A stretch of 63,222 bases of DNA, filler included, from Collodictyon triciliatum (taxonomy: Eukaryota): the NCBI GenBank assembly GCA_043381765.1. It is 10 parts of 10 records of this genome, joined end to end, with 100 filler letters (N's around TTAATTAATTAA, not from the genome) between each part and the next. Parts side by side here need not be neighbours in the genome. Positions count along the whole stretch, not along the records: positions 1 to 6,269 come from JBHJMP010004588.1; 9 more parts are not named here. One strand, given 5' to 3'. Below, in pieces: positions 4,001-57,273 of the stretch; the first letter of the stretch is position 1, and each line of letters opens with the position of its first letter. The notes beneath the pieces are model-generated. The model ran no database searches. It was not told the DNA's origin and saw only the letters and a list, made by a program, of their open reading frames with translations. Position numbers and translations under genes: made by a program.

Positions 4001-5075
4001 TTTTACTTCGATCAGAAGCAATAGCACTATTCACACCGACAAACTGCACCGTAACCCACTTGGCTGTCCATCGCACCTTATCCACAATCTAGATGCAAAC
4101 GCCGATCGTATGAAAGATAAAATAGCTTATTTATGTGATAAAATTAACTTAAAACTACCGTAAGATAATGAATAAATGAACACCTTTCTTTAAATCAACT
4201 ATAATGCATTTCAATGAGGGTTTACATTACGTTAGACAATTTGGCGAGTTTATATGCGCTCATTTAAAATGAACAGAGTTAATATAAATCCTGTGGAAAG
4301 GACATGAAAATTATATTCTAAGATATAAATATAGTGCCGACTCCTCCAGCTTTTGAAGATTGATTGGCTCCTGTCTTTAATATTTTTATGAATAGTCTAT
4401 TGCTGATCAAAAACTTTCCAAGTAATATTATGTATAATTTTCTCTTCAACTTGATCCAAAAAATAAATTCAAATATTAAACGACAATAGATTGAGAATAA
4501 TTTAGTTAAAAACAATACTTTTTTATTAATCGAATATAATATGTCTTGAAATATATGAAAATGTATTATTTTTTCTACAAAAACCTGTCATGGATATGTA
4601 AATTGCCCATGCTTACAAAACAATCATTTCATAAAGAATCAAGATATTTATTTCATTCTATTTACCTTTCTGTGAGCTCGAACCTCTCGTCTTTTTCCCA
4701 TCCCATATTGTCGAGTGTATCAAAATCTGTGTGTAATTGAAAAGATATCAGCGGTGGCATATACACGTCACATTATTTTGCTGCGACAATTTACAAAGAA
4801 AACAATAAAATTCATAAAATCACAATACATTACATAAAAGGAGTGTAAAAAGCTGATTTTTTTATTGACAGCATGCTTTTTTAACTTTAAATATATGAAT
4901 ATGTCGTTTATTTGTAGAACAGAATAAAGCATGAATTTGAATAGATAAACATGCATATATACTTTCTTTTCAATTGAAGCTCTTAAATCGGATGCTTTTC
5001 ATGTTACAGATTTATTGTGTGTACTTTCTAAACCTTATTTTCTTCCAAAATGACAACACCTAGCAAGGAAACTGA

Positions 5076-6269
5076 ATGCTAAAGAAATTTTTATTAGTGG
5101 ATGTCATATTAACAGGTTTGTTAGTACTTGATGAAGAATTGAGTAATATGAGAAAATATTATATTTTAAAAAAAAGTAATATGAACTGAATGTGTATATT
5201 AAATACTATAGTGTTGCTCTGGCAACATCGTGTATCTGAAGTTGAAGGTCAAGAAAAATACTTGATTCGCACGCTGGATGATCATACAAAATGGGTTTGG
5301 AGTGTTGCTGTTACTCCTGACGGCTCTAAAATAGTGTCTGGAAGTTCTGACTTCACAATTAAAATATGGAGTCTTTATGATGGAGGTTTGATAAGAACCT
5401 TGAATGGCCATACTGGTACTGTGCAAAGCGTTGCTGTCTCCCCTGATGGCTCAAAAATAGCGTCTGGAAGCCTGGACTACACAATCAAAATCTGGAATCC
5501 CTCTGACGGAGCATTGATCCGGACATTGTCTGGGCATTCAAGGGATGTCCTCAGCGTTGCTATTTCCCCTGACAGCTCAAAAATTATTTCAGGGAGCTGG
5601 GATAGCACAATCAAAATTTGGAGTCTTTTTGACGGAACATTGATTAGCACATTATGGGGTCATGCATATAGAGTCATGAGTGTTGCTTTTACTCCGGATG
5701 GCTTAAATATTGTCTCTGGGAGTGCTGATATCACTATCAAAATATGGAATGTTTCCAACGGAGCTTTGATTCGCACTTTAACAGGGCATAGCAGTAATGT
5801 CAACAGCGTTGTTGTGACTCCTAATGGCTCTAGAATCGTTTCTGGAAGTGTGGATTGGACAATCAAGATTTGGAATTTTTCTGATGGAGCTTTAATTCGC
5901 ACATTGTCAGGTCATATTTGGGATATAAGCAGCGTTGCTGTCACCCCTGATGGCTCAAAAATTGTTTCAGGGTGCGGAACCAATGACCGAACAATAAAAA
6001 TTTGGAATCTTTCTGATGGAGCTTTGATTCGCACATTGTCAGGTCATAACGACGGTGTAAATAGCGTTGTTGTTGCACCTGATGGGTCGAAAATTGTTTC
6101 AGGAGGAAATGATTACACAATCAAAATTTGGTTTTTACAAGCTCTGCATTCCATATCTCATTCCAAGTCCAAATCCCAATCCCAATCCCAATCCCAATCC
6201 CAATCCCAATCCCAATCCCAATCCCAATCCCAATCCCAATCCCAATCCCAATCCCAATCCCAATCCCAA
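5076..6269 (+). CDS. Secreted 7-blade WD40 protein with poly-(SQ) tail, 3'-truncated at the contig end
   Basis: Exon 1 is 5076-5115 (MLKKFLLVDVILT), followed by a GT-AG intron at 5116-5211. The spliced N-terminus MLKKFLLVDVILTVLLWQHRVSEVEG/Q is signal-peptide-like. Seven GH...SVAxxPDGSKIVSGSxDxTIKIW repeats follow, then SHSKSK(SQ)n. Confidence 0.9.
6174..6269 (+). repeat. (TCCCAA)n microsatellite encoding poly-(Ser-Gln)
   Basis: Perfect hexamer array, in frame with the WD40 ORF, running into the contig end. Confidence 0.95.
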
Positions 6270-6369: not shown

Positions 6370-9300
6370 CGCGAGGGTGATTGAAAGAGGAAGGCGATAG
6401 ATGACACCATGTTTGATTGACTCTCCGATTTCAGCCTCCAACTCAGCAAGAGCCGGAGCGGAGTTTTCAAGCACACCATACACGCTCACTACCTGCGACG
6501 GCCGGTTCCAAGTGATAAATGCGCGATGTTTCTTTCCGATTTTCTCAAATACACCTCTGTCAACAAGCTCGGAAACAGCATTTCGAATAAAGATTTCATG
6601 TGCAGGGATGTTGGTTGGTGAGATTAGCCTTTTGATTGTGGCGGAGGTGTCGTCAATTTTTTGAGATTTTGAGCACGACATTAGGATAGTAACCTTCTTT
6701 TTCTGTTCATCGACAATCGATTTGGAGACAAGGGGGTTGCCTTGTTCTCTTGCCAAAGTTAGGATTTGATTAATTCTTGGCTTAAAAAATTCATAAATGG
6801 GTAGATATATCTCAAGGTTGTCCGAAACGTTCTGCTCGACTGTAATAGGACGACCAAGAAGGTGTGTGTCACCAGACAGGCCAAGCGCAGCTCTGCATGT
6901 ATCTTTCGAATCAAACTCTATAATAATGGAATGCTTTGGTTTAGTGGGATTTACATCCAAACGAGAAGAGAGGATTCTACCATAATTTTGGAATCGGCCC
7001 ACCAAAATAGTTTGGATTTGTTCGGAGCTCGGAAGCGGTCTATATTGGCCAAAATTATTTGTGACTCGATTCACTGGCATATATAGTTCAATGGCCTGCT
7101 TAATCTCAGTCATCTGTGTTTTCGGAGAAAGCCCAGTTATACAAAGAACGTTCGAATCAACCCTACCTTGGGAGCTCCTGAAGTTGACACGACAGTTTTG
7201 CAACAAAGGAATAGAAGTTCGACATATTTCGAGAGCAACAACTTGAATTGCAGATCCCAACTCCACAGTCACAGTATATGGCTGATTTTGCATCCAGGTG
7301 ACCCGAATAGCTGTATCTTTCTTAAATGTAACGGGAGTTTTGTTTGCAGGTAAATATCCATTTATACTCACAGACTTTTTTTCATCTAATAGAATCTCTC
7401 TTCGGTACCGCAAAGTTTCTCTTCTTTCAAATAGCTGTCTTGCCTGCACAGCAGAATCAAACATAATGTAGAGATCTACTGTTTGAGTGTCTCTGTGATA
7501 CCAAAAGTCTATGCTCTCGAATATATCAATCTTGTTTTCTCTCATAAATGCGTCTACACAGTCAGCTGCTCCCATTCCCCTGATAATTGGAAGTTTCTGT
7601 ATCTGAATAATTCGAAACTCAGTTGTGTTGATTAGAATGGATGTTACGTTGGCTCCAGCTCCTAATGAGACTCTAGATAAACTGTTTGCCACCCAAACTT
7701 CTAAAACTTGACGCTTTATCTCATCTCTTATTTTTTCTAACTCCTTACAAACTTCTTCAAAGACTGCCTCTGCCTTTTCGGCAGGTGCCCACAACTTCAT
7801 GCTATTATCTGAATTGGAGTACAGCATAGCGCATCTGCTTTTCATCTCCAAGTCTTTAATGAGGGAAGGAATTTTAAGCTTGGCTTGCATTAAATTGCTG
7901 CCAAAATTTTCGATGTATCGAGTCTCGTAAAAATGCTCTTTTGATACCCGTCTGAAATTATACTGATCTAAAAACGCCATAGGAATCCATTCAATTTCTA
8001 CTGGAGATATGTTTTTCATGACGCTTTCTTTCCCTTTGATGAAGTTGCTGTAAACGACAAAATTGGGTGTTCTTCCCATTAGCATACTTTCCGTGTGCAT
8101 TTTTGCAACAACCGATAATCGTGTTACATAATAATCGTCTTTGATAGTTCTCATGGAGAGATTGTAGAATAACCCTCTGCAAATACACATTTTGATTGTC
8201 CTGCTCTTTTCTTCAGGAGACATTTGTTTCTGTTGAATAGAAATCTTGAGGTGCTTTGTGATTCTCTCTTGATAAAATGCCACTATGCGTGAAATGAATG
8301 TGAGATATTTTTGGTTGATTCCCAAAGCATCGCTCCATTCTTTCCTTTGCTCTGTTGGAACTGCTGTCCATGCAGTGAGTATCTTCTGTTGCAAGATGAT
8401 GTCTCCATCCTGAATCGACAAATTCATGGATTCTAAGAGTTTTTGATCCTTTTCACTGATATCCCCTTTGAAAAAAAGGTTTCCAGGATTTGCCAAGAAG
8501 GCTGTGATGATAAGGGTTTCCGCAAAACAGCCACTTTTAATGCCAGTTTCTAAGCAGCAAGCATAAGATGGGTGAATGCTCAGTACTAAAGCTATTTTCC
8601 CTACATCAGTTAACCCTCCATCTCTTGTAATGGCCCCGACTGATTCAATTATAACGAGCGATGATTGTAGTGACCTTGGAGGTGGTGGGGTAACATATGG
8701 GAAATCTTCGTGGCGCCCTTTAGTCAAAGTCATTACTTGTAGAAGAGCTAAATCGAGCGTACTGTATGATATCTCAGGCTTGTGTGTCTTTTCCATGGAT
8801 TGGTAATTTTCGTGAGAGAAAAACTGGACATACACTCCTCCTGGCTTAGAAGAAAGTTGTAAACGTCGGGAGCGAACGGTACTTTTTGTTACCATTTCAA
8901 GCTAAAATGGAATTTTGTAATTGAGATTAGATATCTGGTGAATACGAAAACGTACTTAAATTTTATGATTGAATATAAAAATGTATATAAAATATGTTTG
9001 TAAGAGAAATCTGAATAATATGAGTGGAAGGGGAAACTCACTCTGTACTCGGTGCTTTGAGAAACTGGGTCGAATTGCTCGCTTTGTACGAAGCCTAAGT
9101 CAATAATGAATCTCATCGTTTCACATACAAAAATGTTCCCAGTAGAAGCTGCCACCAGGTAAACCTTTCGGTGGTTTGGATAAAGTTCATTCGCCTATTG
9201 ATTGTTTAAAGAGAAAAATTGTGAAAAAAAAATCACACCACAATAAAATTGGCTACATTTTCAATTAAAAATATTATGGAGATAGTACCTTGATTGGGTC

Positions 9301-12005
9301 CGTCGTTTGTATCTTTGAGTATGGGAAAATTTTAATGTCTTTATCTTTGTTTGATTTCTGAATAATGGGAAGTAGCTTGGTGCAGGAGTCTGTTCCATCG
9401 AGGAAAATGGCTATGTCACCAGGGCCTCTCCTTTTGAGGTCATTGATCTACGTGGATGGCATTAACATCTTTTACATTGTGCTATTTTATCCCATTTAAA
9501 AAAATTCAAAGAAAAGCTCATAGATATGTCCATATCACTTTTTTTTTCCTTTATTCGATTCAAAGTATGTCCATATCACTTTAGAATATCTTTAAGTGTC
9601 ACCTTATTAATCAGTGTTGGGACGATATTATCTCGGTCCGGGGGCGTTTCTCTAATCACAGTGACGGGAAATTCATCAGGCTCTAAGGAAACTGTCATAA
9701 CAGATTGGAAATGCTGATAAATATCTGTAATTCCATCAGCACTGACACAGAGGATTATGCGAAGAGCTGGGCGCGTCGGAAGTACAATTTTTAATGCCCC
9801 CAAGAGTACATCCATCATGCAGCTCCTTTCTGCAACGCCGTTTATAATTATGCAATCATATGGAATGTCATATATATTTCTGTAGAGAGTATCCATGAAG
9901 CTCATGATATCATTCACGACTATCCGCGACTTTCCATTGTTTTGCTGTAAAATTATAATTTTAAGTGATCCAACTAAGGCATAAGATACAAATAAGTTGA
10001 AATATTTCTTGTATTTCGGAAAATGGGTGTACAGAAAAAAACCTTACAAAAAATAAAATAAAATAAATAACAAGATTAAAAATCTTACAACTAGAGATAT
10101 GTCCCGTCCTAGTTTTAGCCCCGAAATCTGACATAGGCGCTCGCCATAGCTTCGACGGGATAATGCAGAGTCAATAAGACACAGAGTATTTTCAAATCCA
10201 CCCAATGACATTAAGAGGGGTAGTTGCACTAAGCTGTCTGAGCGTTGGTTCGTTAGTAAGAGCGTCACTTGTGAGGCTTTAATTGAACGCAATAGCTCTT
10301 TTCTGTGCATGTAAACACTATCCCTTGTTGAAGCGAAGTGAGTTTCTATAGTAGCCCATTCTCTTAGCATGGGATGCAACGCAAGAGGAACTTTCCAAAT
10401 AATACTTCCCAAATACAACTGAAAGCGAGTAAATTCTGATATAACATGGTCAATCTGATTTGTTTGTCTTGCCCAAACAAGAGCCTCCTCTGTAATCATG
10501 TTAATTTCTCTTCCCTGCCCAAGCTGATGGTCAAACGGGATTTTTGCTTTCTGGCAGAGCTCATATTGCATTTTTTCAAGTTCTGGTATGATATTTGGGT
10601 TGAAACTTGCGATGATGGTAGAGGCACTTTCAATGGTCTCGCGATCGTGTATAACAGGAGTCTCTAAGTGGTTGTGATTTTTAATACAATGGGGGTTGGA
10701 ACAGAAAATTCCATGCCAGCAAACATCAGAGGCCTTTTGTGTTTTTTCTGGGTGGCTCAAAGGGCATACGCTACTGAAGCAGCGTGTTTCGTTGGGGCAT
10801 TTATTCCCCGTATCTTTCTTCGAAAGACTTGTGGTAGATGAACCCCCTGTAGAAATAACACTTTTTTGCCCCTTTGAAAGTACAGATTGTCCATCACTCA
10901 AATCGGCTTTGCCAGAGACACTCTCACTGTCTACGTCGATACTTTCATTCTCATCTTTTGATAATGATTCATCTTCGTCATCACTAGAGTAGTGACTTTG
11001 GTTCTCTTCAGGACCTTGATTCATAATTTGGTTCACAGCCAGAGCTCCATCTCGAGGGTGCCAAAAGCGACACTTTGGAATACGACATGCATTCCCAAAC
11101 TTGCATTTTTGGATGGAACTACCTTTCTGCGATGCTTTTTTTGTCATCGGTGATTTTGATCTACTGGTTCGCTGCTCAAGAGCAGTCTTTTTAGCCTTTC
11201 CATCGCCTGCAGAATCCATTTTGTTTGGATGGATCAATAAGCAAGCTGGGTCGATGCATTCCGCCCCTGCAGGGCATATGTCATCATCTTGTGCTGGAGT
11301 CAGATCTTCTTCTTCATTTTCGTCCCCATCGTGAATGATAGCATCGCCCAAATTTTCTTCAAGAAACTCATCATTTCCTTCATTTCCCCGTGGGTTAAGT
11401 TCATCATCTTTATCGACTTCTTGTGCACCGTTCCCTTCATTGCCTCCATCCTGCAGAAGCATCTCGTATTTGGGGTCGTGCTTGCTAGAGGAAGCTTCTC
11501 CGTGGTGCTTGGATGTTATGTTGCTCGGACCAAAGGTCTCACGAGCAGGTTGCTTTCCATCTAGAATCCCTCCAACTTCTCTTCCGTCCCCTCTTCCATA
11601 TCCACGTCCTCTTCCTCTTCCACGCCCACGTGTACTGTCAGATTCGGCGTCGTTATCCTGGCCAAACTCTTGATCGATTCCACGCCCGCGTCCACGTCCT
11701 CTTCCTTGTTCTTGTAAGAAACCACGGCCGCGTCCGCCTCCTCTTTGGTTGAAAGGGTTTGCTTGCAGATTCTCGCCATGATCTTCTTCTGCGCCTTCAG
11801 GCGTGTCGGGAACAGCTTCAAGGGGGTGACCATGGGGCTGTTGCGTCAACAGAGCAGAGCTGCTTTGGCCAACAGGCTGTGGCGCTGGGATGTTTGGAGA
11901 GATATTCTTGTCAAACGCACCACCATAAACGCCTTGCTTGCTTGGGCTCTTTGGCGGCTCCATCTCTTTTTCTGGTTTCTGGAGAATGTTCAAATATAGA
12001 GTCAT
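6370..12005 (-). CDS. DEAH/RHA-family helicase-like protein with RGG repeats, four CCCH fingers, a degenerate helicase core, HA2/OB and RRM/KH-like regions; 3'-truncated
   Basis: Multi-exon: about 12005 (or 11963)-10089, 9944-9603, about 9447-9289, about 9193-9042, about 8900-6370. Contains RGRGRG, CPAGAECIDPACLLIHP, CKFGNACRIPKCRFWHP, ERSCMMDVLLGALK, GDIAIFL, FIIDLGFV and the HA2-like GAITRDGGLTDVGK. The RRM-like segment is SIIIEFDSKDTCRAAL. Confidence 0.85.
9541..9565 (-). mobile_element. Very short retroposon tail with a 16-bp TSD, inside a helicase intron
   Basis: The minus strand reads CTTTGAATCGAATAAAGG-A7. Perfect direct repeats TATGTCCATATCACTT lie at 9525-9540 and 9566-9581. Confidence 0.8.
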
Positions 12006-18243: not shown

Positions 18244-19012
18244 ATGAGGTTGAACTCAAAGTCGTTTACATCTCTGTTGCTGTTGGGTGAGTTTTAAATT
18301 GGAATTGTTTTAATTTTATTGCTTCAAATTACAGATTTTAATAATATATCTTTAGGATTGATACTATACTGCCAATTTTGTCTTGTTGAAGGGCAAGATG
18401 ATTCGATTCGTACATTGAATGGTCACACTGGTACTGTTTACAGTGTTGCTCTTACTCCTGATGGCTCAAAAATTGTTTCTGGAAGCGATGATAGAACAGT
18501 CAAAATTTGGAATCTTTCTGATGGAGCTTTGATTCGTACATTGACTGGTCATACTGATTGGGTTCGGAGTGTTACTGTTACTCCTGATGGCTCAAAAATT
18601 GTTTCTGGAAGCGATGATAGAACAGTCAAAATTTGGAATCTTTCTGATGGAGCTTTGATTCGTACATTGACCGGTCATACTAGTTATGTTAACAGTGTTG
18701 CTGTTACTCCTGATGGCTCAAAAATTGTTTCTGGGAGCAGTGATAGAACAGTCAAAATTTGGAATCTTTTTGATGGGTCTTTGATTCGCACATTGACTGG
18801 CCATAACAATTACGTTTACAGCGTTGCTGTTACTCCTGATGGCACAAAAATTGTTTCTGGAAGCTGGGATATTACAATCAAAATCTGGAATCTTTCTGAT
18901 GGAGCTTTGATTCGCACATTGACTGGTCATACTGATTGGGTTCGGAGTGTTACTGTTACTCCTGATGGCACAGAAATTGTTTCTGGAAGCGATGATAGAA
19001 CAATCAAAATTT
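18244..19012 (+). CDS. Secreted WD40 protein with highly homogeneous 126-bp repeats, 3'-truncated
   Basis: Exon 1 is 18244-18286, followed by a GTGAGT...TTTAG intron at 18287-18355. The spliced N-terminus is MRLNSKSFTSLLLLGLILYCQFCLVEG/Q. Five WD40 repeats precede the contig break. Confidence 0.9.
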
Positions 19013-21285: not shown

Positions 21286-22896
21286 CTAGGAGGAGAAGCA
21301 ATTTGTTAGACTATCGCCTGAAATCAGGTTGTGTGGATTCGGTGCGTCCTTTTGTCTTGGAGTTTCGCTCCTGTCCATGGTTAATTATAGACTTTGTGCC
21401 TGTGATGTGGAGTGGTTTTTTGAATGCCAAGAAAAGAGGAGCCCTGCGAATGACTCTTTGTCTTCCAGCACCAACTACATACAGATTATATACAGGAGCG
21501 CATCAGCCGCCTGCCTCGCCGAGTGACAAAGCGCCCGCAAAAACGAGCGTGTGTTTGTGTAGCCGAGCAGTGCCCGTGACAATCTTGTATGCAGCGCGTT
21601 TGTTCCTTGGTATGTGCTGTCGTCATGAATGCCCTCTGCCTATCACACACGACGTGTTTTGCTTTGCGGGTGACTCCCCTGGTGTGGTGTGTTGGTTGGC
21701 TTGTGACGTGGCACTGACAGGTTCCGATTTGTGATGACTGGTGTGGTGCCACTCTGTGACGTCATGATTCCAGCACCAGAACCCATTGACCCAAACATGG
21801 ACTCAACATATGGGAATGTGCTCAAGAGACATTATGGAAATCGGTAGGGTGACTTAAAACACACAAAATATAATTATCTATTATACAATTATGAATATTA
21901 TGCATAAATTTATTTATTGAAGTATTGTACATCTTAATTATTATTATAACATCCAGAATTAGAAATATAATATGGAAAATGAATATCCATATAGGGATGT
22001 ATTGAAAGGGTATCCTAATACGACTATATTTATAGAATATTATGAACATTTACCAGATTCGAAACATGAGGACAAAGACGGCAAGGCAGGTAATTTCCAT
22101 AAAAAACCGGAACATCAGAATTAGGAATCACGTCTGCCGTTCATTCCACAATTGGGGATTGGACTCCTCATTATTTTTTGTGGATCATGTGCTCCGATCA
22201 CAATTTGCGCAATTAATTTTTTTTTTTGTTTGTTTGTTTCGTGCAGGGGGATGTGATACATACGCAGCCTATTGCTTCGCGGATTTCCAACCTTTTTCCT
22301 GGGTCTCTGATGCAAGGCCGACTTTCCGCAACGCAATTCCTTCTGATTCATTTCCAGCACCGCACCCAACAAAGCAGATCTTCTGGGACAATGCCGTGAT
22401 ACCCGGACAGGAATAAACACCTCTTGCTCTACTCGACCAAAATGAAAGAGAAAAAAAAATCTATTCTTAAATAATAAACAAAAAGCAAAAAGCAAAAAAC
22501 AAAAAGCAAAAAACAAAAAGCAAAAAACAAAAAGCAAAAAACAAAAAGCAAAAAACAAAAAGAAAAAAACAAAAAGAAAAAAGCAAAAAGCAAAAAAGCA
22601 TAAAACAAAAAAAACACATGCTCACGCGCATGGAACCGTCCACCCACACCCAACGTCTCGCAATGCCTTCTTTCTTCTTTCCTTCCCATCGATCTCCATC
22701 GCGCCGCAGCCAGCCCCATCTCCCCTCGCCATTACCTCCACACCGACCGCACCCACAAACGAAGGAAACCCATCCCCCTTACCAACAAACAAACAAACAA
22801 ACAAACAAACAAACAAACAAACAAACAAACAAACAAACAAACAAACAAACAAACAAACAAACAAACAAAGGCATCCCCACCTCCACAGAGATCGCA

Positions 22897-24072
22897 ATGG
22901 GCACGCCAACCCCCACAGACACGCGGCCACACACCCTCCTCCGCTTCGGCAGCATCCCGGACGACACACCCACGCCGCTGGGTTGGCAGGACGACTCGCC
23001 GCTCGGGCTGCGCTCCCTGTCCCCGCCGCGCGCCCTGGCCACAGCCACAGCCACAGCCACAGCCACAGCCACAGCCACGCGGCCGCCGATCATGCCGGAC
23101 TCTAACGGCGAGAGCGACGAAGATGGCGACGAAGATGGCGAGGAAGATGGAGGCGAAGAGGGGCACAGGGCCGAGACGCGGACAGGGGGTGGGGCAGGGG
23201 CAGGGGCAGGGGCAGGGGCAGGGAGTGGGGCAGGGGCAGGGCTCGTGCGGCGGAAGCGGGTGCGGTCTGCGGCGTGGACGCGGGGGGAGGACGAGCGCCT
23301 CGGGGCGATTGTGCGGGGCAGCGGGCAGCGCAACTGGCGGGCGATTGCACGTGCGCTCGGGGGGCAGCGGTCTGCGGACCAGTGTTGCCAGCGGTGGCAC
23401 CGCGTGCTGAGCCCGGATCTGAACCGCGACGCGTGGACGCCGCACGAGGACGCGCTGCTGGCCGATCTGATCCGCTCCCACGGGCTCGCCGCGTGGCCAA
23501 CCATCCTCGCCCGCTTCCCGCACCGCACCGAGCTGCAGTGCCGCTTCCGCTGGTCCACCCTCAAGCGCCGCCAGACCCTCGTCTTCCACCTCGAGACCCC
23601 TGCCGCAGCCACAGTTCCAGCCACAGTTCCAGCCACAGTTCCAGCCACACCCACAGCCACAGCCACGCCCATGCCGCCCCCGCTCCCCGCCCGCATCGGC
23701 GCCCCCTCCATGGCACAAGTCTCCCCCGCCTCCTCCCCGCTGCTCGCCCGCCTGCCCCATCCGCACCTCTCGGCCTCCTCCCCGCTCACCCCGCAGTTCC
23801 CATCGCCCCTGCCCTCCCCGCTTTCCCAGACACTCCTCACCCCGCAGTTCCCGTTTTCCGTACCCTCCCCGCTTTCCCAGACCCTTCCTGCCCCGCCGTT
23901 GTCGGCGCTGCTCTCTGCGCGTGGCAGCCCGCGTTCTCTGGTGGCGACTTTGCCGCTCCCGCAGACTCCCGCGGCGTCGCTTTCCTCTCCCCAGACGCAG
24001 CAGAGTCCCTGGTCGGCCGATTCGCCCCGAGTGCAGGACATTCGCATGAAGATTGATTCGTTGCTGAATTAA
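22897..24072 (+). CDS. Two-repeat Myb transcription factor
   Basis: Myb repeats WTRGEDERL...NWRAIA...RSADQCCQRW and WTPHEDALL...WPTI...RTELQCRFRW. The likely start is ATG 22897; the upstream frame is only an (AAAC)n repeat. The protein ends MKIDSLLN*. Confidence 0.9.
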   Translation: MGTPTPTDTRPHTLLRFGSIPDDTPTPLGWQDDSPLGLRSLSPPRALATATATATATATATRPPIMPDSNGESDEDGDEDGEEDGGEEGHRAETRTGGGAGAGAGAGAGSGAGAGLVRRKRVRSAAWTRGEDERLGAIVRGSGQRNWRAIARALGGQRSADQCCQRWHRVLSPDLNRDAWTPHEDALLADLIRSHGLAAWPTILARFPHRTELQCRFRWSTLKRRQTLVFHLETPAAATVPATVPATVPATPTATATPMPPPLPARIGAPSMAQVSPASSPLLARLPHPHLSASSPLTPQFPSPLPSPLSQTLLTPQFPFSVPSPLSQTLPAPPLSALLSARGSPRSLVATLPLPQTPAASLSSPQTQQSPWSADSPRVQDIRMKIDSLLN

Positions 24073-24987
24073 GGTTGGTCTTTGTGTATGTATCCGTGTC
24101 TGTGCGCGGGGTGCGGTCCCAGCATTTCTTTTCTTGCTTGTTAAAATTATTCTTTCATCCGTCCCATTCTCATCCTTTTATTGTATTATTATTATTGTTA
24201 ATGTCAATGTCATTCTTTCCTCCGTCTCATTTTCATCCTTTTATTATTATTATTATTATTATTTTTGGAAAAAGAAAAAGAAAGGGAAGATACAACTTGC
24301 AAGGTGTCAGTTTTCATGTGGATAGTGATGGAAATAATGATAAAGGAAATCAGTTGGATGTGTACGGATGTGTGTTGCAGGAAACCTGCAAAGTTGTTGG
24401 ATATATCACGGACAGAATTGATTCGTTTCTTTCCGAACGCGTTGTATTAACATGTCTTCCCTTTTCCTGCAATACTAGAATGTGTTTGCCCAGAAGACTG
24501 CCCCTCCTGCGCGTAATCAGATCCAGGGGTGTTGCCAGACGACTTAGATTTCTGTTATTAATAACACCATTCAATACTTCACTCCACTATACTCTACTCC
24601 ATCTCTTTCGCTAGAATGAAAAGTAACTTCCACCGCTTCATAAAACTCTCATTCTTGATTATTTTTTTTATCTCTTGCGTCTCCTTTATCGTAATAAATT
24701 ATAAACTCGAAGCAACATTCATTCATTCATTTCGAAATAAACATGAAAAAAATGGAAGTGGAAGGAAAAAAAAAGAAAAAGAAAAAGGAACAAACAAGAA
24801 ATATAACGTAAATAAGCACACACAATCACTTTTGAAAGTAATCGCCATTAACGGTGATGATGATGATGATGGGGGTCTAATTCCATATCTTTAATTTTTC
24901 CTTGTTTGTTCGTTTCTTTCCTCTCTCATCGGTTCCCAGTCACGATAGTCAACATCTCTCTGGGAATCAACATAGGAAAGGTAACTT

Positions 24988-25377
24988 TCACTTCCATTTG
25001 CACATGGTTAGTGAATGACTAAGGTAGTTTGCATAATAGAAGTTCCCGTTAGGTGAGAATGCGATGCCGAGAGGATGTTTTGCATTCATAAAGCCCAACC
25101 GAGTGCCGTCCTTGGCATAAAACCGAATCTGAGACCGTGACCAATCGCTAATCGCAAATCCATTCTTTGGTCCACGGCACATATCTACTGATGGTGTTCC
25201 AGATGAGCATTGGTCAACAGTCATCGAGCGTATATACGCTCCATCATTACTCAACACATGTACTGTATTTCCACCACGGCAAAGAACAAGAAGCTCGTTT
25301 TCGTGGTTGAATGCGACTGCCTCTGGCTGTTCGATGCGAATGCTTGTTTCCGTCGTACAAGGATTCGGCATTGTGCA
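24988..25377 (-). CDS. C-terminal NHL-repeat (beta-propeller) fragment, 5'-truncated
   Basis: PEAVAFNHENELLV...NTVHVLSNDGAYIR, FAISDWSRSQIRFYAKDG and HPLGIAFSPNGNFYYANY are NHL-like blades. Confidence 0.75.
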   Translation of the reverse strand, partial: CTMPNPCTTETSIRIEQPEAVAFNHENELLVLCRGGNTVHVLSNDGAYIRSMTVDQCSSGTPSVDMCRGPKNGFAISDWSRSQIRFYAKDGTRLGFMNAKHPLGIAFSPNGNFYYANYLSHSLTMCKWK

Positions 25378-39146: not shown

Positions 39147-40036
39147 CTATCTACGTCTCCGCTTGCGACTCCCTAAACTAATCCGTAAGTCACTGAACCT
39201 ACAAAGATCTACCCACACACACTTGAAGTTTTGTACAAATTCACTCACAGATTGCAGACTCGATTCATCCTTCTGTCGTTTTGGAGAAGCTGCCGACGCA
39301 GCCTCATATTCTTTAAGGGCTGTGCCTCCCATATGTTCAGTGGCTATGTCGTCCGAGAGCAAGCATGATTGAATTAATCGCTTTCCTAGTTTTTTATACA
39401 ATAAGATTGAATCTATAGTTGGTACAAAATAATTGAATGGGATGCATCTTGCTTTAGATCTTCCAATAGAATCTTCAATTTTTCAAAGGGGAAAAATTAA
39501 AGTTTGCTTCTATGTGGCTCATACCATCATGTTTTTGGACGATGGGCTGGAATTTGGGTGTAGCAAATGAATATACATGTCCCGTTTCCGATGCAATCAG
39601 CAGGAGCACCTTGAGGTAAAATGCAATTTAGATAAACTCTTGTCATGAAATTCAATATTTTATTTTATTTCTGCGTGAGTAAATCTTCTCAAGAAAAATA
39701 ATAAAGATTGCCTGGGTTCCTGTCAATGCGCTGAGTTCGAAAGCCTATGTCGATTACAAATAATTAATCCCAGACGCCTTTGATTAGACTATTCTATTTT
39801 GGTTTGTTTTATTATCTACTTTGGCACACAATTTTATTAAAATCTACGCCGTTCAATTGAAATGTGTCAACCTTTTTCATGATCCCTGCTTTTCTCTTGC
39901 AGAATGTTATCAACCGTCGACCTCGGTCTTCAATGAAGTTGATTTTTGTCTTGCGCTTTTCAAAAGAGTTTCTCTCGAAATCATCCTCTTCATACCCTGC
40001 TGCCCCGTGCTCATCATCCAAGTTCAATCTGTCCAT
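39147..40036 (-). CDS. SRF/MCM1-type MADS-box transcription factor
   Basis: Exons 40036-39872, 39744-39712, 39609-about 39524 and 39385 onward give KRKTKINFIEDRGRRLITFCKRKAGIMKK|AFELSALTGTQ|VLLLIASETGHVYSFATPKFQPIVQKHDG|KRLIQSCL. The exact C-terminus is uncertain because of a possible intron at about 39248. Confidence 0.92.
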
Positions 40037-41899
40037 GCTTTTTCCTCTGCTTTTTGGATTGTCTTTTCTGATTAATATGTGTAAAGTACTCATTAAGTTT
40101 CTGGTGTAAAGCATGAGCTAAAATTACTGTAAGCCGATTCCTCCGCATCTTGCATAAACAGAAATGAAGGTTGGAAAAAACGAGCTAGATATTATTGCTT
40201 TTCTTGGGTAAATCATATTGTCCCCACTAATAAATTCCTCTACAATCTTTTATCATACGTTGTATATTTAAGTATTTATATCAAGTTGTTATCCCCGCGA
40301 AGCGTATTCTTGCGGGTTTATTGTCATAGTAAAAAGTTTGGAGTAAAGTATTGCTTCTTTGGAACTCTCTTCTCTTCTTTTATATATATATATATATATA
40401 GCTATCCTTTTCCTCTGTGAACCGCGACACTCATTATGGAAGTGTCGCTGCCTTACTACCAAAAAGACACCGACATGCTGGTGAATTCCATTTCCCACTT
40501 CATGATTCCAGTGACTTTTTTATATTTTGAAGATGATTTGTTACGCAGAGCAAAAACTCGTCACGATAATGGGGTGGACGAATACGTATGATGCAGCCAC
40601 TGGTTTACTTGGTGTCGTCACGACACCGCACACGGACCGATTTTAGACGAGATGAGCACAATTGTTACGTATGTACTAATTTGAGTCAGCGGCCATCTTT
40701 ACCGAAGCTGCAAGCGAAAAAGTGACCATAAGCACGATAACTGCAGTTATTCGGGGATTCATCCCACACGTGACCGGGTAATGCAAAGACCATGCCCGTT
40801 TTAACATGGTACTAATATCATTCCCTGCCCAAAAGAAAAGGCGAGGAGATAGATGAAGCGCCATCAAGACGAGACACATTTTATTGTCCAGATACATACA
40901 AACGATTCCTAAAAGAAGATTGAAATATCATTATAGCGTAAAAAGGCATTAGAACAGGGAAACGTCACCATTCCAACTTGTCTACTAGTCTGATAAGTTA
41001 CTTTGAATTAAAGTGAAACCTACCGTTGTATCGAGACACTCGTACACTTTTAATGGCTCCTTATGTCATATATCATACTGAAATAAGCTAGTTCGTCACT
41101 CTGGGGAATGAAAGGTATTGGGTTGTGATATTTATGATTCGTTTTTTTCTCATTTTAATCACGATTTTCTTCAGAATGCGTTGCCGAATCCACACGAAAT
41201 CGTCAAACTCATCGCGCATAATTTATTTAACTCAACATAACGCGAACCAACTGCACCATCACGCTTACAATATTCCTGTTTGTTGCGATAAATAATCCGG
41301 GCCACAAGAATGAGCTCAAGACGAAAAGGCTTAAACGACGGGGAGTGATGCCCGTATGATTTACACACTCACTAATACCGAGACTGATAGAAACAAACTC
41401 TGCCTCTAGCGTGTGAAATGAACATGGTTGCTGCAGTAGCTGAGTCAAGTGGTGGAGTTGTCCACTCGTGTGATGGTGTTGTATGCAAGAATCTGCTAGT
41501 CCCTCTCCACCCAAACATATCTCCCTATGATTAAAAGGACTCGAGGCTAGCGTCCACCTCGGCCTGCAGAGTGGACGCACTCCCTCTTACTCCCCACTGG
41601 TCTTCGCGTCAAAACCCTACACCTCAAAAAAAAATTTCCCACTAGCCATGTCAGACGGAGGGATCATGATTCATCGTCGGAAAAAGGTACTCACAAAGCT
41701 AATTGAACATACTGTGTTCGGCCCTTTCTTCAAATATGCGCCTCATTCTGCCACAGTTGGGTAAACTCCTCATGCAACCGGGTGGGCATCACCACCAAAT
41801 AAATTCATGCACCCCTTCGCAAAATGTCACCCGCAACAAAAAAATCCCCCTACCTAAGACTTTGGCCGAGAAGATGGACAGCGAACTTATACAGCCCAT

Positions 41900-42591
41900 T
41901 TATTCGACATGGACGGGGAATTCGAAAGAGGCCTGCTTGCCGGTGAGTCTCTTGTAGATGGCAGCGAAGGTTCCGAACTTAGGCTCGACTGTCTCGCGGT
42001 CCTTGCGGTCCAGGTAAATCTTCAGCAGCTTGTTGCCATCGACCTTAACGCGGGTGCGCTTGCCAACAATCTCGGTGGGGTAGACGAGGTCCTCAAGGAT
42101 AGCCTCGTGGACAGCGGTCAGGGTGCGGGAATGTGGGCGCTTCTGGCGGGCAATGTGGTTGTTGCGGGAGGGGCGGGGCAGAATGCGGCGCTGAGCGATG
42201 ATGACAACGTGGGCACCGCTGAACTTCTTCTCGAGCTCACGGACAAGGCGTGTCTGAACCTGTACACACGCAATATAGAGTGCCTGAGAAAAATCGGACA
42301 AAAGTCGCGTGGTATGTGAATGTGGTAATATGGTATGCGCGTAGCGACAAGACAAGACAAGAGATTCGGTTGAACCTTGTGGAAGCCCTTCAGCTTACGG
42401 AAAGGAACCCAGATAAGCAGGGAGCGCTTGCCGGCAGCGTCGATCTCGCGAACACCAGCGATCTGGAGGTCGCTCAGATCGGCCTTGAGGTCTTGGTTGT
42501 TCGACTCGAGGTCGAAGAGAGCCTGGGCAACTTGCTTCTCGATTTCGGTGGCTTCACCCTTCTTGGCGATCTTGGCTTGGTATGTGGCCAT
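41900..42591 (-). CDS. RPS7: 40S ribosomal protein eS7
   Basis: Exons 42591-42376 and 42259-41900 give ...[18 protein letters not shown]...[30 protein letters not shown]...FEFP. Confidence 0.97.
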
Positions 42592-44467: not shown

Positions 44468-44730
44468 NNNNNNNNNNNNNNNNNNNNNNNNNNNNNNNNN
44501 NNNNNNNNNNNTTAATTAATTAANNNNNNNNNNNNNNNNNNNNNNNNNNNNNNNNNNNNNNNNNNNNTATTTTTTTATTATTATTATTATTTTATTATTA
44601 TTATTATTTTATTATTATTATTTTATTATTATTATTTTATTATTATTATTTTATTATCATTTTAAAATGGAAGAAAAAAGCATGAAACATGAACCAGTCA
44701 AAAAATATGTAATTGGTGATAATGAATCAG

Positions 44731-46017
44731 GTGCTGGGTTCGAAAACACTGGGAATTATACAAACTGTGAAGTTATTTTCATGGACATCGAAAATATCCA
44801 TGTTGTGAGAGATAGTTGGAGAAAAGTTCAAGTAACGATATGAAATGCATAAAAAAATCAGATAACAGATACTCCATTTTATTCAAATTATATATGATAT
44901 TAAAAAGAAATGTACACTTCATATATTTCAACATTTATCTGCGCGCTAGGACTTGGTTAATGGCATTGGTCAAGGAGATGACAGTCGTTGGTACTCTATG
45001 TTGGAAGGGACGCACTGGTTGATTCATATCCAGTCGATTATTCGTGCTGCGAAGTTTATTGTGGACCAAATGAACCAGAAAGAATGCTCATTTTTAGTTC
45101 ACTGCAGTGGTTCTCTTTCCTTTTCATGCGTTTCCCTATTCTATCTATTTATTTTCTTTTTATTTTCTTTTTATTTTCTTTTTATTTTATTTTTATTTTT
45201 ATTTTATTTTTATTTTTATTTTTATTTTTATTTTTATTTTTATTTTTATTTTTATTTTTATTTTCTTTCTACTTATAATCTGTATATTCTCTTGCTTTTA
45301 ACTATCCGTAGATGGTTGGGATCGTACATCCCAGGTTGTTGCTTTGTCGGAGCTACTTCTGGACCCTCATTACCGCACGGTCTGTGGGTTTGAAGCGTTG
45401 ATTGAGAAAGAATGGCTTTCTTTCGGCCACAAATTCGCGACACGATGCGGACATGGGCCTGCCAACCGCGACAGTGACCAGCGCAGCCCAATCTTCCTTC
45501 AATTCCTCGATTGTGTCTGGCAAATCACCCGCCAATTTCCGTCAGCTTTTGAGTTCAATGAGAGGTTCCTGATCACCATTATGGACCATGTGTACAATTG
45601 CCGCTTCGGAACATTCCTCTGTGACTCTGTGAGCGAACGACACCAGGTATTCTCTCCGTGCCCAACTATATCGCCCACCTAACACCGACTATGTCTCTCA
45701 TACTGATTTTAATTTATACTTTTAACTATATTTGTACAGACATTTTCTTTTGTGTTTATGTCTGGCGCAGCCACATGACCCCAAAAAAAAAAAACATAAA
45801 TTCAGGTGCATAGACATATCGTTTCTTTGCCTCGTAGGTGTTTATCTACAATAAACCATCCCTATGGACTTGGATGAACCAGCAGATGACCGTCTACAAA
45901 AACGAAAACTACTCGCCTGTCGACGCGCCGTTGACTCCGAGTGATGGGATGTGGAATCTGCGCCTCTGGACCAACATGTATCTCCGCTGGACTGGAATTC
46001 AGCCTTTAATCCACTAA
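44731..46017 (+). CDS. Myotubularin-family phosphoinositide 3-phosphatase, C-terminal part, 5'-truncated
   Basis: Contains [10 protein letters not shown], an intact HCS|DGWDRT catalytic motif across an intron, [32 protein letters not shown] and FGTFL. Stop TAA at 46015-46017. Confidence 0.95.
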
Positions 46018-56739: not shown

Positions 56740-56968
56740 TCATGCCATATTGAGTGCCCCTAAATAACAAAAATATCATGTCTCACAGTAGCTAAATATA
56801 CTTCTTGGCTGATGATGAAGAATAAAGAAACCCATCACCCACAAAGATTAATATAAAAACAAAGTCAAAAAGAGAGAAAATTGAATCAAAAAAATTAATA
56901 AACCATGCCATACTCCACACAATAAGTGCATATTTTGGTGGCTTTGTGAACAAAGAGAGAAAGGAAAC

Positions 56969-57273
56969 CTCATTCCCTCGAAAAGTGAGTTGCGTAAGAT
57001 TCGTAAGATATTCTATTTCTCCCGGGATTTTAACAAAACAATTATGATCAAATGCCAGCATGTACAAGGACGTCATCCTCGACAACACTCGTGGGAATTC
57101 TCTCAATTGATTGTGCTCTAACCTCAAAGCTCTTAAACTTGCTAGGGCCCGTATTGCGTCCGGTATTCCTGACAATGCGTTGTGACATATACTGAGTTCC
57201 TTTAGATTCACCAGCACTGATGTGTTATTCGGCAACACGGTGAGGCAATTATGGTCCAAGCGGAGGGTATATA
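56969..57273 (-). CDS. Leucine-rich-repeat exon (fragment)
   Basis: LxxLxLxxNxL repeats: LRLDHNCL, LKELSICHNAL, LRALRLEHNQL, LTQLTFRGNE, then a GT donor. The exon is bounded by an N-gap. Confidence 0.8.

Follow-up and report, generated by a model that had tools for sequence, protein, structure and literature searches.

Predicted export leaders on WD40 propeller genes of Collodictyon triciliatum: probable secreted or surface binding proteins

Canonical WD40 propellers of eukaryotes are regarded as cytosolic or nuclear scaffolds, and hypervariable WD40 repeats are known for their sensor role in NLR-like proteins inside the cell. An export-type leader is an unusual setting for a WD40 domain, and the genes described here, each of which appears to begin with one, raise the question of whether such propellers can serve as binding proteins outside the cell. 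The window (the whole stretch of 63,222 nucleotides analysed, from Collodictyon triciliatum) is split by nine N44-TTAATTAATTAA-N44 spacers into ten records, one of which has a 349-N gap inside it. A tblastn search of the window with the repeat region as query placed the WD40 family at 5262-6137 (+), 18394-19011 (+) and 26437-29070 (-) only, so that three of the ten records carry a family member, with one paralogous gene per record (g1, g2 and g3). The search and the gene models confirm what a sequence-only reading of this DNA had proposed, namely unlinked WD40 genes on three of ten contigs with a short first exon and a phase-1 intron. The gene structures established by sequence logic are as follows.

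5076..5115, + strand: g1 exon 1, start codon and first 13 leader codons, last codon split (phase 1); donor CAG/GTTTGT
5116..5211, + strand: g1 intron, 96 nt, GT-AG, GC 0.20
5212..5249, + strand: g1 exon 2, leader part, V-E-G end before the +1 Gln, small residues at -3 and -1
5250..6134, + strand: predicted mature part of g1, a WD40 propeller of seven blades with 7 units, unit 6 being 44 aa long; PF00400 in 7 stretches, E=3.5e-77
6135..6269, + strand: g1 short linker and (TCCCAA)n, an SQ tract of at least 16 SQ pairs that reaches the record end
18244..18286, + strand: g2 exon 1, start codon, basic n-region and beginning of the hydrophobic core; donor TGG/GTGAGT
18287..18355, + strand: g2 intron, 69 nt, GT-AG, GC 0.19
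18356..19012, + strand: g2 exon 2, remainder of the leader (V-E-G before Gln), then five WD40 units, truncated by the record end; PF00400 in 5 stretches, E=1.9e-64
29168..29204, - strand: g3 exon 1; donor TAG/GTAGTC, with a second in-phase GT 3 nt downstream
29112..29167, - strand: g3 intron, 56 nt, GT-AG, GC 0.23
26443..29111, - strand: g3 exon 2, remainder of the leader, with C-M-A preceding Gln, then 21 WD40 units in three groups of seven; PF00400 in 20 stretches, E=1.6e-188
25576..26442, - strand: g3 cysteine-rich stalk, nine Ephrin_rec_like modules; PF07699 in 9 stretches, E=1.3e-48
25478..25575, - strand: g3 SQ tract, (TCCCAA)n in gene orientation, SQ reading frame as in g1, reaching the record end

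The first exons are 37-43 nt long, the introns are all GT-AG and phase 1 and lie 13-14 codons ahead of the +1 Gln, and each start codon is the first ATG after an in-frame stop, which stands at codon -1 in g1, -3 in g2 and -13 in g3. As one part of the explanation favoured below, and with the same better-than-even confidence, g1-g3 would be intact paralogs from a eukaryote of low GC that uses the standard genetic code and has short GT-AG introns. The window gave no Rfam match. It also holds the first exon of eS7 (S7e), an identity on which the PDB and Atlas look-ups agree; a homology search with this exon gave no match at E<=0.001.

The domain content and the fold are firmly established. All three genes score above the Pfam WD40 (PF00400) cut-off of 27 bits, and of the D-H-S/T-W tetrad residues, D occurs in all 33 units, H in 32, W in 30 and S/T in 28. 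The AlphaFold2 model of g1 (pLDDT 97.9, pTM 0.94) is a closed propeller of seven four-stranded blades (28 strands) that starts with a normal closing strand, and Foldseek superimposes it on solved seven-bladed WD40 propellers with TM 0.93-0.96, the best matches being a designer seven-bladed WD40 (7big), the Nostoc highly repetitive propeller 2ymu from which it derives, PkwA and WDR5; identity to 7big and 2ymu is 47%. In g3 there are 21 unit anchors, with unit 8 degenerate. Mean pairwise unit identity is 0.64 in g1, 0.75 in g2 and 0.58 in g3 propeller 1, but 0.38 and 0.46 in g3 propellers 2 and 3, which are ordinary diverged repeats, and the nearly fixed scaffold claimed at first sight therefore holds for the former three and not for the latter two. 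Within-protein identity and hot-spot diversity place the genes in the highly repetitive WD40 class as outlined in the relevant part of Hu et al. (2017), with g3 propellers 2 and 3 lower. A 44-aa sixth unit is the sole positional mark common to g1 and g3; the scaffold-identity matrices of g1, g2 and g3 show no diagonal, i.e. no blade-by-blade orthology, and a tree of the repeat units gave no resolution. No other Pfam domain, NACHT included, was found in ORFs of at least 80 aa elsewhere on the three records, in agreement with the earlier statement that no NACHT domain lies upstream of the propeller.

The position of the variable sites is equally firm. Entropy calculated over the 42 full columns of 33 aligned units from g1-g3 is highest in five columns, GH+2, GH+3, GH+5, SGS-x and D-x (2.96-3.26 bits), and these flank an invariant V and an invariant D (x-V-x, x-D-x). 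Variation had been said to concentrate at GH-xxx-V-x and SGS-x-D-x; all five columns do fall there, but GH+1 is only moderately variable, at 1.89 bits. When mapped on the g1 AlphaFold2 model, the variable columns occupy the d-a and b-c loops, on a single shared face of the propeller, as had been anticipated. The passages on codon variation in PMC1805685 give the diversifying codons of HET-E as 7, 9, 25 and 27, flanking the conserved codons 8 and 26, and entropy and model together bear out the proposal that the variable sites here are the diversifying sites of HET-E.

Such a face could belong to binding proteins of variable specificity. A possible though distinctly less probable reading is that the proteins are exported structural or adhesive components of a coat or matrix with one fixed partner, and that the variation between blades combines the normal asymmetry of a binding face with recent repeat amplification. 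This reading gains from a parsimony count of dN/dS over all 33 units, which gave 0.88 at the six variable sites and 0.44 elsewhere, so that the ratio above 1 expected at these sites was not obtained for the whole repeat set; site-wise, no single site was significant over the 33 units (best values 1.41, P 0.29, and 2.22, P 0.12), with synonymous sites saturated in g1 and g3 and three genes supplying few sequences for a selection test. It also gains from the diverged state of g3 propellers 2 and 3, from the sight of only three genes in the window and from the generality, in the account of PMC5587647 that bears on this, of hot-spot diversity on a fixed scaffold among highly repetitive WD40 proteins; because of that generality, hot-spot variation alone is no proof of a repertoire function. 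However, it is made less probable for three reasons: first, in g2, where scaffold dS is 0.156 and dN at the variable codons 0.80, near-identical units differ at the top-face codons. In the six variable codons (18 bases), units 2 and 3 have 9 differences, compared with 3 in the remaining 108 bases (Fisher 5e-7); for units 2 and 4 the counts are 13 of 18 and 10 of 108, and units 2 and 5 share 96.7% DNA identity. The contrast resembles that of HET-E and is seen only in the recently homogenised g2 repeats; given that units otherwise almost the same are 2-3 bases apart per top-face codon while the silent scaffold has hardly changed, it indicates selection for, or retention of, differences. Second, the sets of residues at the variable sites differ between paralogs in every blade compared. 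Third, a family member occurs on three of ten random short records. We consider the extracellular binding modules favoured below the better reading of the two.

It is conceivable, if unlikely, that g1-g3 are ordinary cytosolic WD40 scaffolds, that conceptual splicing has created a spurious upstream exon and hydrophobic leader, and that translation starts elsewhere. With splicing carried out conceptually, and by a home-made rule, all three genes have a leader in which a basic n-region is followed by a hydrophobic core and, ahead of Gln, by small residues at -3 and -1, and the repeats begin 0-9 residues past the predicted leader; the core of the g1 leader contains an Asp. Hydrophobic leaders with Gln at +1 are thus as the sequence-only reading described them in three of three spliced models, except that the g3 leader has one residue more at the exon junction than was written there. 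The cytosolic reading can point to introns that are predicted from sequence, to an in-frame ATG at 5190 within the g1 intron that offers an alternative, unspliced start with a shorter leader, and to a Met two codons before Gln as a possible start of g3. Out of 5000 trials with shuffled upstream DNA, moreover, 233, 590 and 932 produced a spliced leader resembling a signal peptide (5-19% per gene, joint ~1e-3); acceptor and exon 2 were kept fixed, which makes this control a generous one. Against it, exon 2 of g2 contains no Met anywhere and so requires an upstream coding exon, intron phase and position are common to the three genes with a sharp drop of GC in the introns, and the alternative start of g1 still gives a hydrophobic N-terminus. 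The leader is read here, with somewhat better than even confidence as part of the whole, as a cleavable signal peptide split by a conserved phase-1 intron, with splicing, cleavage and export predicted. A run search returned two contig sets from lake metatranscriptomes, identical in their rows and with a 0.06 share of words. Over 4900-6269, both sets contain the same pieces only, 5721-5753, 5937-5968 and 5985-6135, the last with 4 differences from g1 in 151 bases; exon 1, the intron and the start of exon 2 of g1 have no cover in the two sets, which has no bearing on splicing, expression or habitat.

Two further features bear on location, with opposite outcomes. The WD dipeptide had been described as mostly replaced by the sequon WN(L/V/F)S: Asn does follow Trp directly in 22 of 33 units, but the full N-x-S/T sequon at this site is present in only 15 of 32 (3/7, 3/4 and 9/21). 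Sequons are not enriched over composition shuffles (4 against 3.5, 3 against 2.0 and 20 against 19.9 expected), a point that also favours a cytosolic location, and the Ser of N-x-S is part of an x-S-D-G motif found in the bacterial relative as well; for these two reasons the glycosylation argument is weak. The earlier note does not mention the cysteine-rich region that separates the repeats of g3 from its SQ tract. This region has 32 Cys among its 289 aa, whereas the 876 aa of the g3 WD40 part contain 3 (the WD40 parts of the three genes have 1, 0 and 3), and the region, seen in g3 only, scores above the Ephrin_rec_like (PF07699) cut-off of 23.1 bits, with modules of the form C-x-x-C...G-[TS]-[YF]; PF23091, PF07562 and PF00020 also match the stalk, TNFR-type models among them. 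The Ephrin_rec_like domain is known from ectodomains, and this in-frame stalk of nine modules points independently to a place outside the cell and is hard to reconcile with the cytosol. In g1 the propeller passes directly into the SQ tract without a stalk, and g2 is cut before the corresponding point. The (TCCCAA)n ends were also considered as telomere and rejected: at both loci the C-rich strand runs 5' to 3' toward the record end, the opposite of telomere polarity, and the tract is read in the SQ frame in both g1 and g3.

The nearest relatives of the g1-g3 propellers are prokaryotic. The closest found is a bacterial seven-repeat WD40 protein of a metagenome locus (L001) that has its own Sec-type leader, is identical to g1 at 176 of 289 positions (61%) and is encoded next to NusA, IF-2 and ABC-transporter genes; a Laspinema protein follows at 59%, and cyanobacteria, whose proteins are 50-60% identical to the window propellers, make up most of the 80 genome matches listed. 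Bacterial or cyanobacterial contamination or chimeric assembly, which these matches might suggest, is highly improbable, given that prokaryotic identity never exceeds 61% among the matches listed, that the records are AT-rich (GC 0.30-0.37) with long non-coding flanks, that a spliceosomal-type intron is needed for the start codon and that g3 is a single 3.6-kb frame whose Ephrin_rec_like modules find their best matches in protists and animals. By a crude rule, 10 of the 80 metagenome relatives listed bear a leader, and the general premise that WD40 proteins are overwhelmingly intracellular consequently needs qualifying, since leaders are common among the closest prokaryotic relatives. The leader-bearing bacterial relative provides a precedent for exported propellers of the same type, and the transfer of a gene for such an exported WD40 protein may have founded the eukaryotic family. 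PF07699 and WD40 were not found in one protein among the best 120 matches by query coverage, the best 150 of another list or the Atlas neighbours, nor was a protein of the same architecture found among a further best 120 matches listed; absence from these lists is weak evidence because long multi-repeat proteins of one domain type dominate them. The only junction-spanning match to g3 (P0301) was set aside, as it combines a C-type lectin with Ephrin_rec_like and has no WD40. Within the collection of papers searched, phrases that combine WD40 with extracellular, secreted, ectodomain or periplasmic led only to one paper on CRINKLY4 and a cyanobacterial review, and GCC2_GCC3 with WD40 only to a general domain survey.

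Given the apparent export leader in three genes and the cysteine-rich stalk of g3, g1-g3 are probably secreted or surface WD40 binding proteins, and the explanation that we favour, with somewhat better than even confidence, is that they are secretory-pathway propellers used as extracellular or cell-surface binding modules. The proteins would enter the secretory pathway by a cleavable N-terminal signal peptide, and the mature protein would run from Gln through a single seven-bladed propeller in g1 and three in g3, all of the highly repetitive type that prokaryotes and fungi also have. Nine disulfide-rich Ephrin_rec_like modules would follow in g3 as a stalk, then, as also in g1, the SQ tract, where the assembly breaks. 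Ligands would sit on the top face: some five positions in each blade, located in the b-c turn and in the d-a loop together with the start of strand a, vary there between blades and between paralogs. As in other highly repetitive WD40 genes, the 126-nt units would be duplicated or converted whole, so that the scaffold stays uniform down to its silent sites, while top-face codon differences would persist or be selected during unit turnover. We infer ligand binding and selection as parts of this explanation, no more firmly than the whole. Secreted or surface binders with variable specificity had been suggested before: the leaders in three of three genes, the variable sites on one face and the g3 stalk speak for them, but recognition of prey, pathogens or self is an inference only. 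A bolder and rather doubtful extension is that a eukaryotic WD40 sensor propeller of NLR type has moved outside the cell, giving a large family of quickly evolving WD40 receptors, secreted or anchored in the membrane, with top-face codons diversified by unit shuffling and selection, perhaps founded from bacteria and serving as an extracellular repertoire of variable recognition for prey, microbes or kin. What is new here is a gene (g3) that joins 21 repeats to nine Ephrin_rec_like modules, and propellers whose nearest relatives are prokaryotic with a leader-bearing best match. If signal peptide and stalk are true, the WD40 binding scaffold would work outside the cell too, with a possible parallel to LRR-based variable receptors and a concrete case in which to ask if a eukaryote took up and elaborated exported bacterial propellers.

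Several known systems share part of this arrangement. Protist surface proteins join PF07699 to other propellers in precomputed Pfam lists, namely RCC1 (P0012, P0015, P0029), Kelch (P0087), NHL (P0115) and SBBP (P0110), and differ in that no WD40 partner of PF07699 was seen among the matches listed. The ectodomain of plant CRINKLY4 likewise comprises a signal peptide, a seven-bladed propeller, thought to be a ligand platform, and a cysteine-rich TNFR-like domain, according to the sections of bioRxiv 10.1101/2020.08.10.245050 on its structure; these describe a disulfide in each blade, regarded as an adaptation to the extracellular space, a pore occupied by an N-terminal strand, nearest folds in BLIP-II and UVR8, and no sequence-level WD40. 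The window proteins, known here up to the SQ tract at most, instead have canonical GH...WD repeats with 0-3 Cys and neither per-blade disulfides nor a pore strand. Leader-bearing single-propeller WD40 proteins of bacteria (L001 and similar), on which no paper was found, are alike in leader, short linker and seven highly repetitive units, with the W-x-x-S-D-G turn in both L001 and g1, and unlike in their bacterial context and in having no intron, Ephrin_rec_like stalk or SQ tract. The prokaryotic highly repetitive WD40 proteins (Nostoc punctiforme 2ymu, Thermomonospora PkwA) provide the best sequence and structure matches (TM 0.93-0.95 for 2ymu and 7big) and, as far as the relevant part of Hu et al. 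(2017, PMC5587647) describes them, the same conserved scaffold with diverse hot-spot sites. Most of them, judging by the source names of the matches, carry a fused STAND NTPase, kinase or peptidase domain, whereas the window genes are eukaryotic and intron-bearing, with g3 fused to Ephrin_rec_like modules. The HET-E/HET-D/NWD (HNWD) proteins of Podospora anserina, finally, share 42-aa WD40 units on a near-fixed scaffold, the same two variable pairs around a conserved V and D in the d-a loop and b-c turn (in the passages of PMC1805685 that describe them), and within-gene exchange or duplication of units, for which g2 units 2 and 5 stand here. As regards the selection typical of the HET-E/NWD type, the window genes combine the pooled dN/dS below 1, from 33 units of which the older are saturated, with the g2 excess at top-face codons. 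They do not belong to the HET-E/NWD-type STAND proteins, which have an N-terminal NACHT or NB-ARC domain: no NACHT or HET domain is present, the leader stands directly before the repeats, and proteins of the HET-E type are cytosolic whereas those of the window are predicted to be extracellular.

The WD40 family occupies three sites only, on three of the ten records, as found by a tblastn search of the window with the repeat region as query, and the Pfam WD40 matches at all three loci (g1, g2 and g3) are overwhelming.

5076-6269, plus strand: g1, exon 1 at 5076-5115, intron at 5116-5211, propeller at 5250-6134.
18244-19012, plus strand: g2, exon 1 at 18244-18286, intron at 18287-18355, running off the record end.
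25478-29204, minus strand: g3, exon 1 at 29204-29168, intron at 29167-29112, then repeats, stalk and SQ tract.

Conceptual splicing reproduced the leaders proposed in the sequence-only reading at the three loci, with a single residue of g3 corrected: the spliced form of that leader stands, the sequence as written does not, as the junction encodes one residue more. The observation of three paralogous WD40 loci with predicted spliced hydrophobic leaders is confirmed, on gene structures that follow from sequence logic. In each gene the exon-1 ATG is the first one following an in-frame stop, and the introns (96 nt in g1, 69 nt in g2 and 56 nt in g3) are all phase 1, sit 13-14 codons 5' of the predicted +1 Gln and have a GC content of 0.19-0.23, sharply below that of the exons. 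The donors are CAG/GTTTGT in g1, TGG/GTGAGT in g2 and TAG/GTAGTC in g3, the last with a second GT, also in phase, 3 nt downstream, and each T-rich acceptor has TAG at its end. Most tellingly, Met is absent throughout exon 2 of g2 and an upstream coding exon is therefore required. Unspliced g3 would start two residues ahead of the Gln, and g1 has another in-frame ATG at 5190, from which the N-terminus is still hydrophobic. When the 300 nt 5' of each acceptor were shuffled 5000 times, with acceptor and exon 2 held fixed, a signal peptide-like spliced leader, by a home-made rule (basic n-region, 12-residue hydrophobic window, total length), arose in 233 (g1), 590 (g2) and 932 (g3) trials; the joint chance of three such leaders is about 1e-3, even with these parts fixed. 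RNA matches came only from two contig sets of lake metatranscriptomes, their rows identical, as small pieces of the repeat region, none of which extends to the leader.

Beyond the leader, g1 continues with seven units, 14 linker residues and an SQ tract that is still running where the record stops; g2 is cut off by its record end at five units. The 21 units of g3 form three sets of seven, followed by a 289-residue part with 32 Cys and the same SQ tract as in g1, in the same frame. This Cys-rich stalk, a feature of g3 that had gone unmentioned in the sequence-only reading, matches Ephrin_rec_like (PF07699, E=1.3e-48) in nine stretches, and TNFR-type models match too. Modules of this type occur in ectodomains, and the stalk therefore lends independent support to an extracellular or luminal location. 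The proposed lack of a NACHT domain upstream was borne out, with no Pfam domain in the other ORFs of at least 80 aa on the three records; the last Pfam scan took in 95 of 121 remaining ORFs, and the other 26 overlap genes scanned already on other records. W-N-x-S, which had been taken as a sign of glycosylation, is weak as such: N is next after W in 22 of 33 units and belongs to a full sequon in 15 of 32, but sequon totals are at the level of composition shuffles (g1 4 vs 3.5, g2 3 vs 2.0, g3 20 vs 19.9) and the sequon Ser is part of an S-D-G turn found as well in a relative on the bacterial metagenome contig L001. N-glycosylation would thus carry little weight as an argument for export. In summary, that the products of g1-g3 are secreted or surface-displayed is the best-supported reading and a reasonably probable one.

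Neither a close eukaryotic relative nor a self-match was among the matches listed from the protein collections, of which the best are 44-60% identical and for the most part cyanobacterial proteins whose names mark them as fusions with NACHT, NB-ARC, kinase or trypsin-like peptidase domains. Among prokaryotic genomes the top match (59%) is from Laspinema, most of the 80 loci listed being cyanobacterial. The top metagenome match is L001, a contig on which an ABC transporter, a phosphonate-binding protein, NusA and IF-2 are encoded as well. The product of the L001 WD40 gene (892-1935) starts with a Sec-type leader, followed by a short linker and then seven highly repetitive units, and is identical to g1 at 176 of 289 positions (61%); it varies at x-V-x and x-D-x, the sites that also vary in the window genes. 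By a crude rule, 10 of the 80 metagenome relatives listed have a Sec-type leader; leader-bearing or lipoprotein-type WD40 genes like that of L001 were seen on L005, L006, L012, L028, L038, L041, L044, L062 and L063. Given L001 and the leader-bearing relatives, bacteria therefore have exported propellers of exactly the g1 repeat type, and it is possible that the eukaryotic family arose from a transferred bacterial gene. The g3 stalk is matched by proteins of protists and animals in which Ephrin_rec_like occurs together with RCC1, Kelch, NHL, SBBP, discoidin or lectin domains; none among the matches listed, which are few relative to the total, combines Ephrin_rec_like with WD40.

The ten assembly records (GC 0.30-0.45 per record) are chained by nine spacers, N44-TTAATTAATTAA-N44, and one holds an internal 349-N gap. 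The remaining genes are eukaryotic and interrupted by short introns, and every frame discussed stays open under the standard code.

Within 6370-8901, minus strand: open frame of 844 aa, containing a helicase-associated OB_NTP_bind domain and cut by the second record's start.
10044-12005, minus strand: 653-aa frame with abundant RG repeats and Cys/His motifs, no Pfam match.
22471-24072, plus strand: Myb-domain gene (PF13921 and PF00249).
24988-25377, minus strand: NHL-repeat ORF (PF01436, E=6.4e-05), cut by the fourth record's end.
33812-36250, plus strand: Kelch-repeat gene of several exons in the sixth record, seen as several short ORFs matching Kelch or Attractin-type propellers.
39815-40117, minus strand: SRF-type MADS box fragment.
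41600-42591, minus strand: ribosomal protein eS7 gene, exon 1 starting at 42591, exons by homology.
44568-45679, plus strand: myotubularin-type phosphatase, at least three exons.
56795-57271, minus strand: LRR fragment adjoining the 349-N gap.

The eS7 intron is GT-AG, about 130 nt, around 42260-42385 (donor AAG/GTTCAA), and exon 2 then reaches a stop codon. The DNA around the Myb-domain gene (22036-24177, both strands) appears biased in composition, as each of its six frames stays open for 150-530 codons. The NHL ORF may be another surface propeller gene, since the g3-stalk matches include proteins with NHL and Ephrin_rec_like.

Modelled with AlphaFold2 from an alignment of 40 rows, the mature g1 propeller has 28 strands (pLDDT 97.9, pTM 0.94), and it best matches, among PDB entries, a designer 7-blade WD40, 2ymu (a highly repetitive propeller of Nostoc, 47% identity), PkwA and WDR5. 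All 33 aligned units have S32 and D40, 32 keep H and 30 keep W, and the five top-entropy columns (2.96-3.26 bits) are GH+2, GH+3, that after the conserved V and those before and after the invariant D. The claim that variation concentrates at GH-xxx-V-x and SGS-x-D-x holds for these columns and not for GH+1, which is only moderate (1.89 bits). In the model the variable residues fall in two places, the b-c turn and the d-a loop with the beginning of strand a; as the blade is a four-stranded meander these are predicted to share one face, as had been proposed, and W-N-x-S is on the opposite face, within the c-d loop. The variable residues correspond to the HET-E codons for which Paoletti et al. 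(PMC1805685) report positive selection, at the top of the propeller: 7 and 9, on either side of conserved 8, and 25 and 27, on either side of conserved 26. The pattern is real and HET-E-like, yet is not peculiar to g1-g3, because Hu et al. (PMC5587647) describe diverse hot-spot sites on a conserved scaffold as general in highly repetitive WD40 proteins. Blade-by-blade orthology between the paralogs is not detectable, apart from a 44-aa sixth unit common to g1 (5900-5990) and the first propeller of g3 (28320-28420), whose extra two residues come directly before the b-c turn's invariant Asp.

The evidence for selection is mixed. Counted by parsimony on an ML tree of the 33 units, the six sites picked for variability give a pooled dN/dS of 0.88 (185.2 non-synonymous and 55.8 synonymous changes) and the rest 0.44; the two b-c-turn sites reach 1.41 and 2.22, neither significant. 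The expected dN/dS above 1 was not obtained for the variable sites pooled. Synonymous sites are saturated within g1 and within g3. More can be learned from g2, whose units are recent copies (scaffold dS 0.156; units 2 and 5 are 96.7% identical). Between units 2 and 3, 9 of 18 bases differ in the six variable codons vs 3 of 108 elsewhere (Fisher 5e-7), all the variable-codon differences changing the amino acid, with 2-3 bases altered per codon; between units 2 and 4 the counts are 13 of 18 and 10 of 108. This is what duplication or conversion of units with retained or selected top-face differences predicts, and is no proof of dN/dS above 1. Uniformity drops along g3 (26443-29070, minus strand), with mean unit identities of 0.58, 0.38 and 0.46 for propellers 1-3; in unit 8 the GH is gone, as is most of the consensus. 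That the family is a recognition repertoire is an attractive suggestion, and a rather doubtful one.

No description of a eukaryotic canonical WD40 family with a signal peptide was found in the literature searched, which was thin in subscription journals. The family belongs to the WD40 and Ephrin_rec_like domain families and not to those of HET-E/NWD or CRINKLY4, since the NACHT domain that defines the former, and the disulfide per blade and pore-filling N-terminal strand of the latter, were looked for and are not found in it. By analogy, it may work like a cross of three known kinds: fungal NLR-like sensor, exported bacterial propeller and propeller-plus-stalk ectodomain. With fungal NLR-like proteins it shares the hypervariable WD40 sensor, whereas the window genes are without the NTPase; exported bacterial WD40 propellers are its nearest kin in sequence; and the propeller-plus-stalk plan recurs in protist proteins that join RCC1, Kelch or NHL to Ephrin_rec_like repeats and in the plant CRINKLY4 ectodomain, a propeller with a Cys-rich stalk (bioRxiv 10.1101/2020.08.10.245050).
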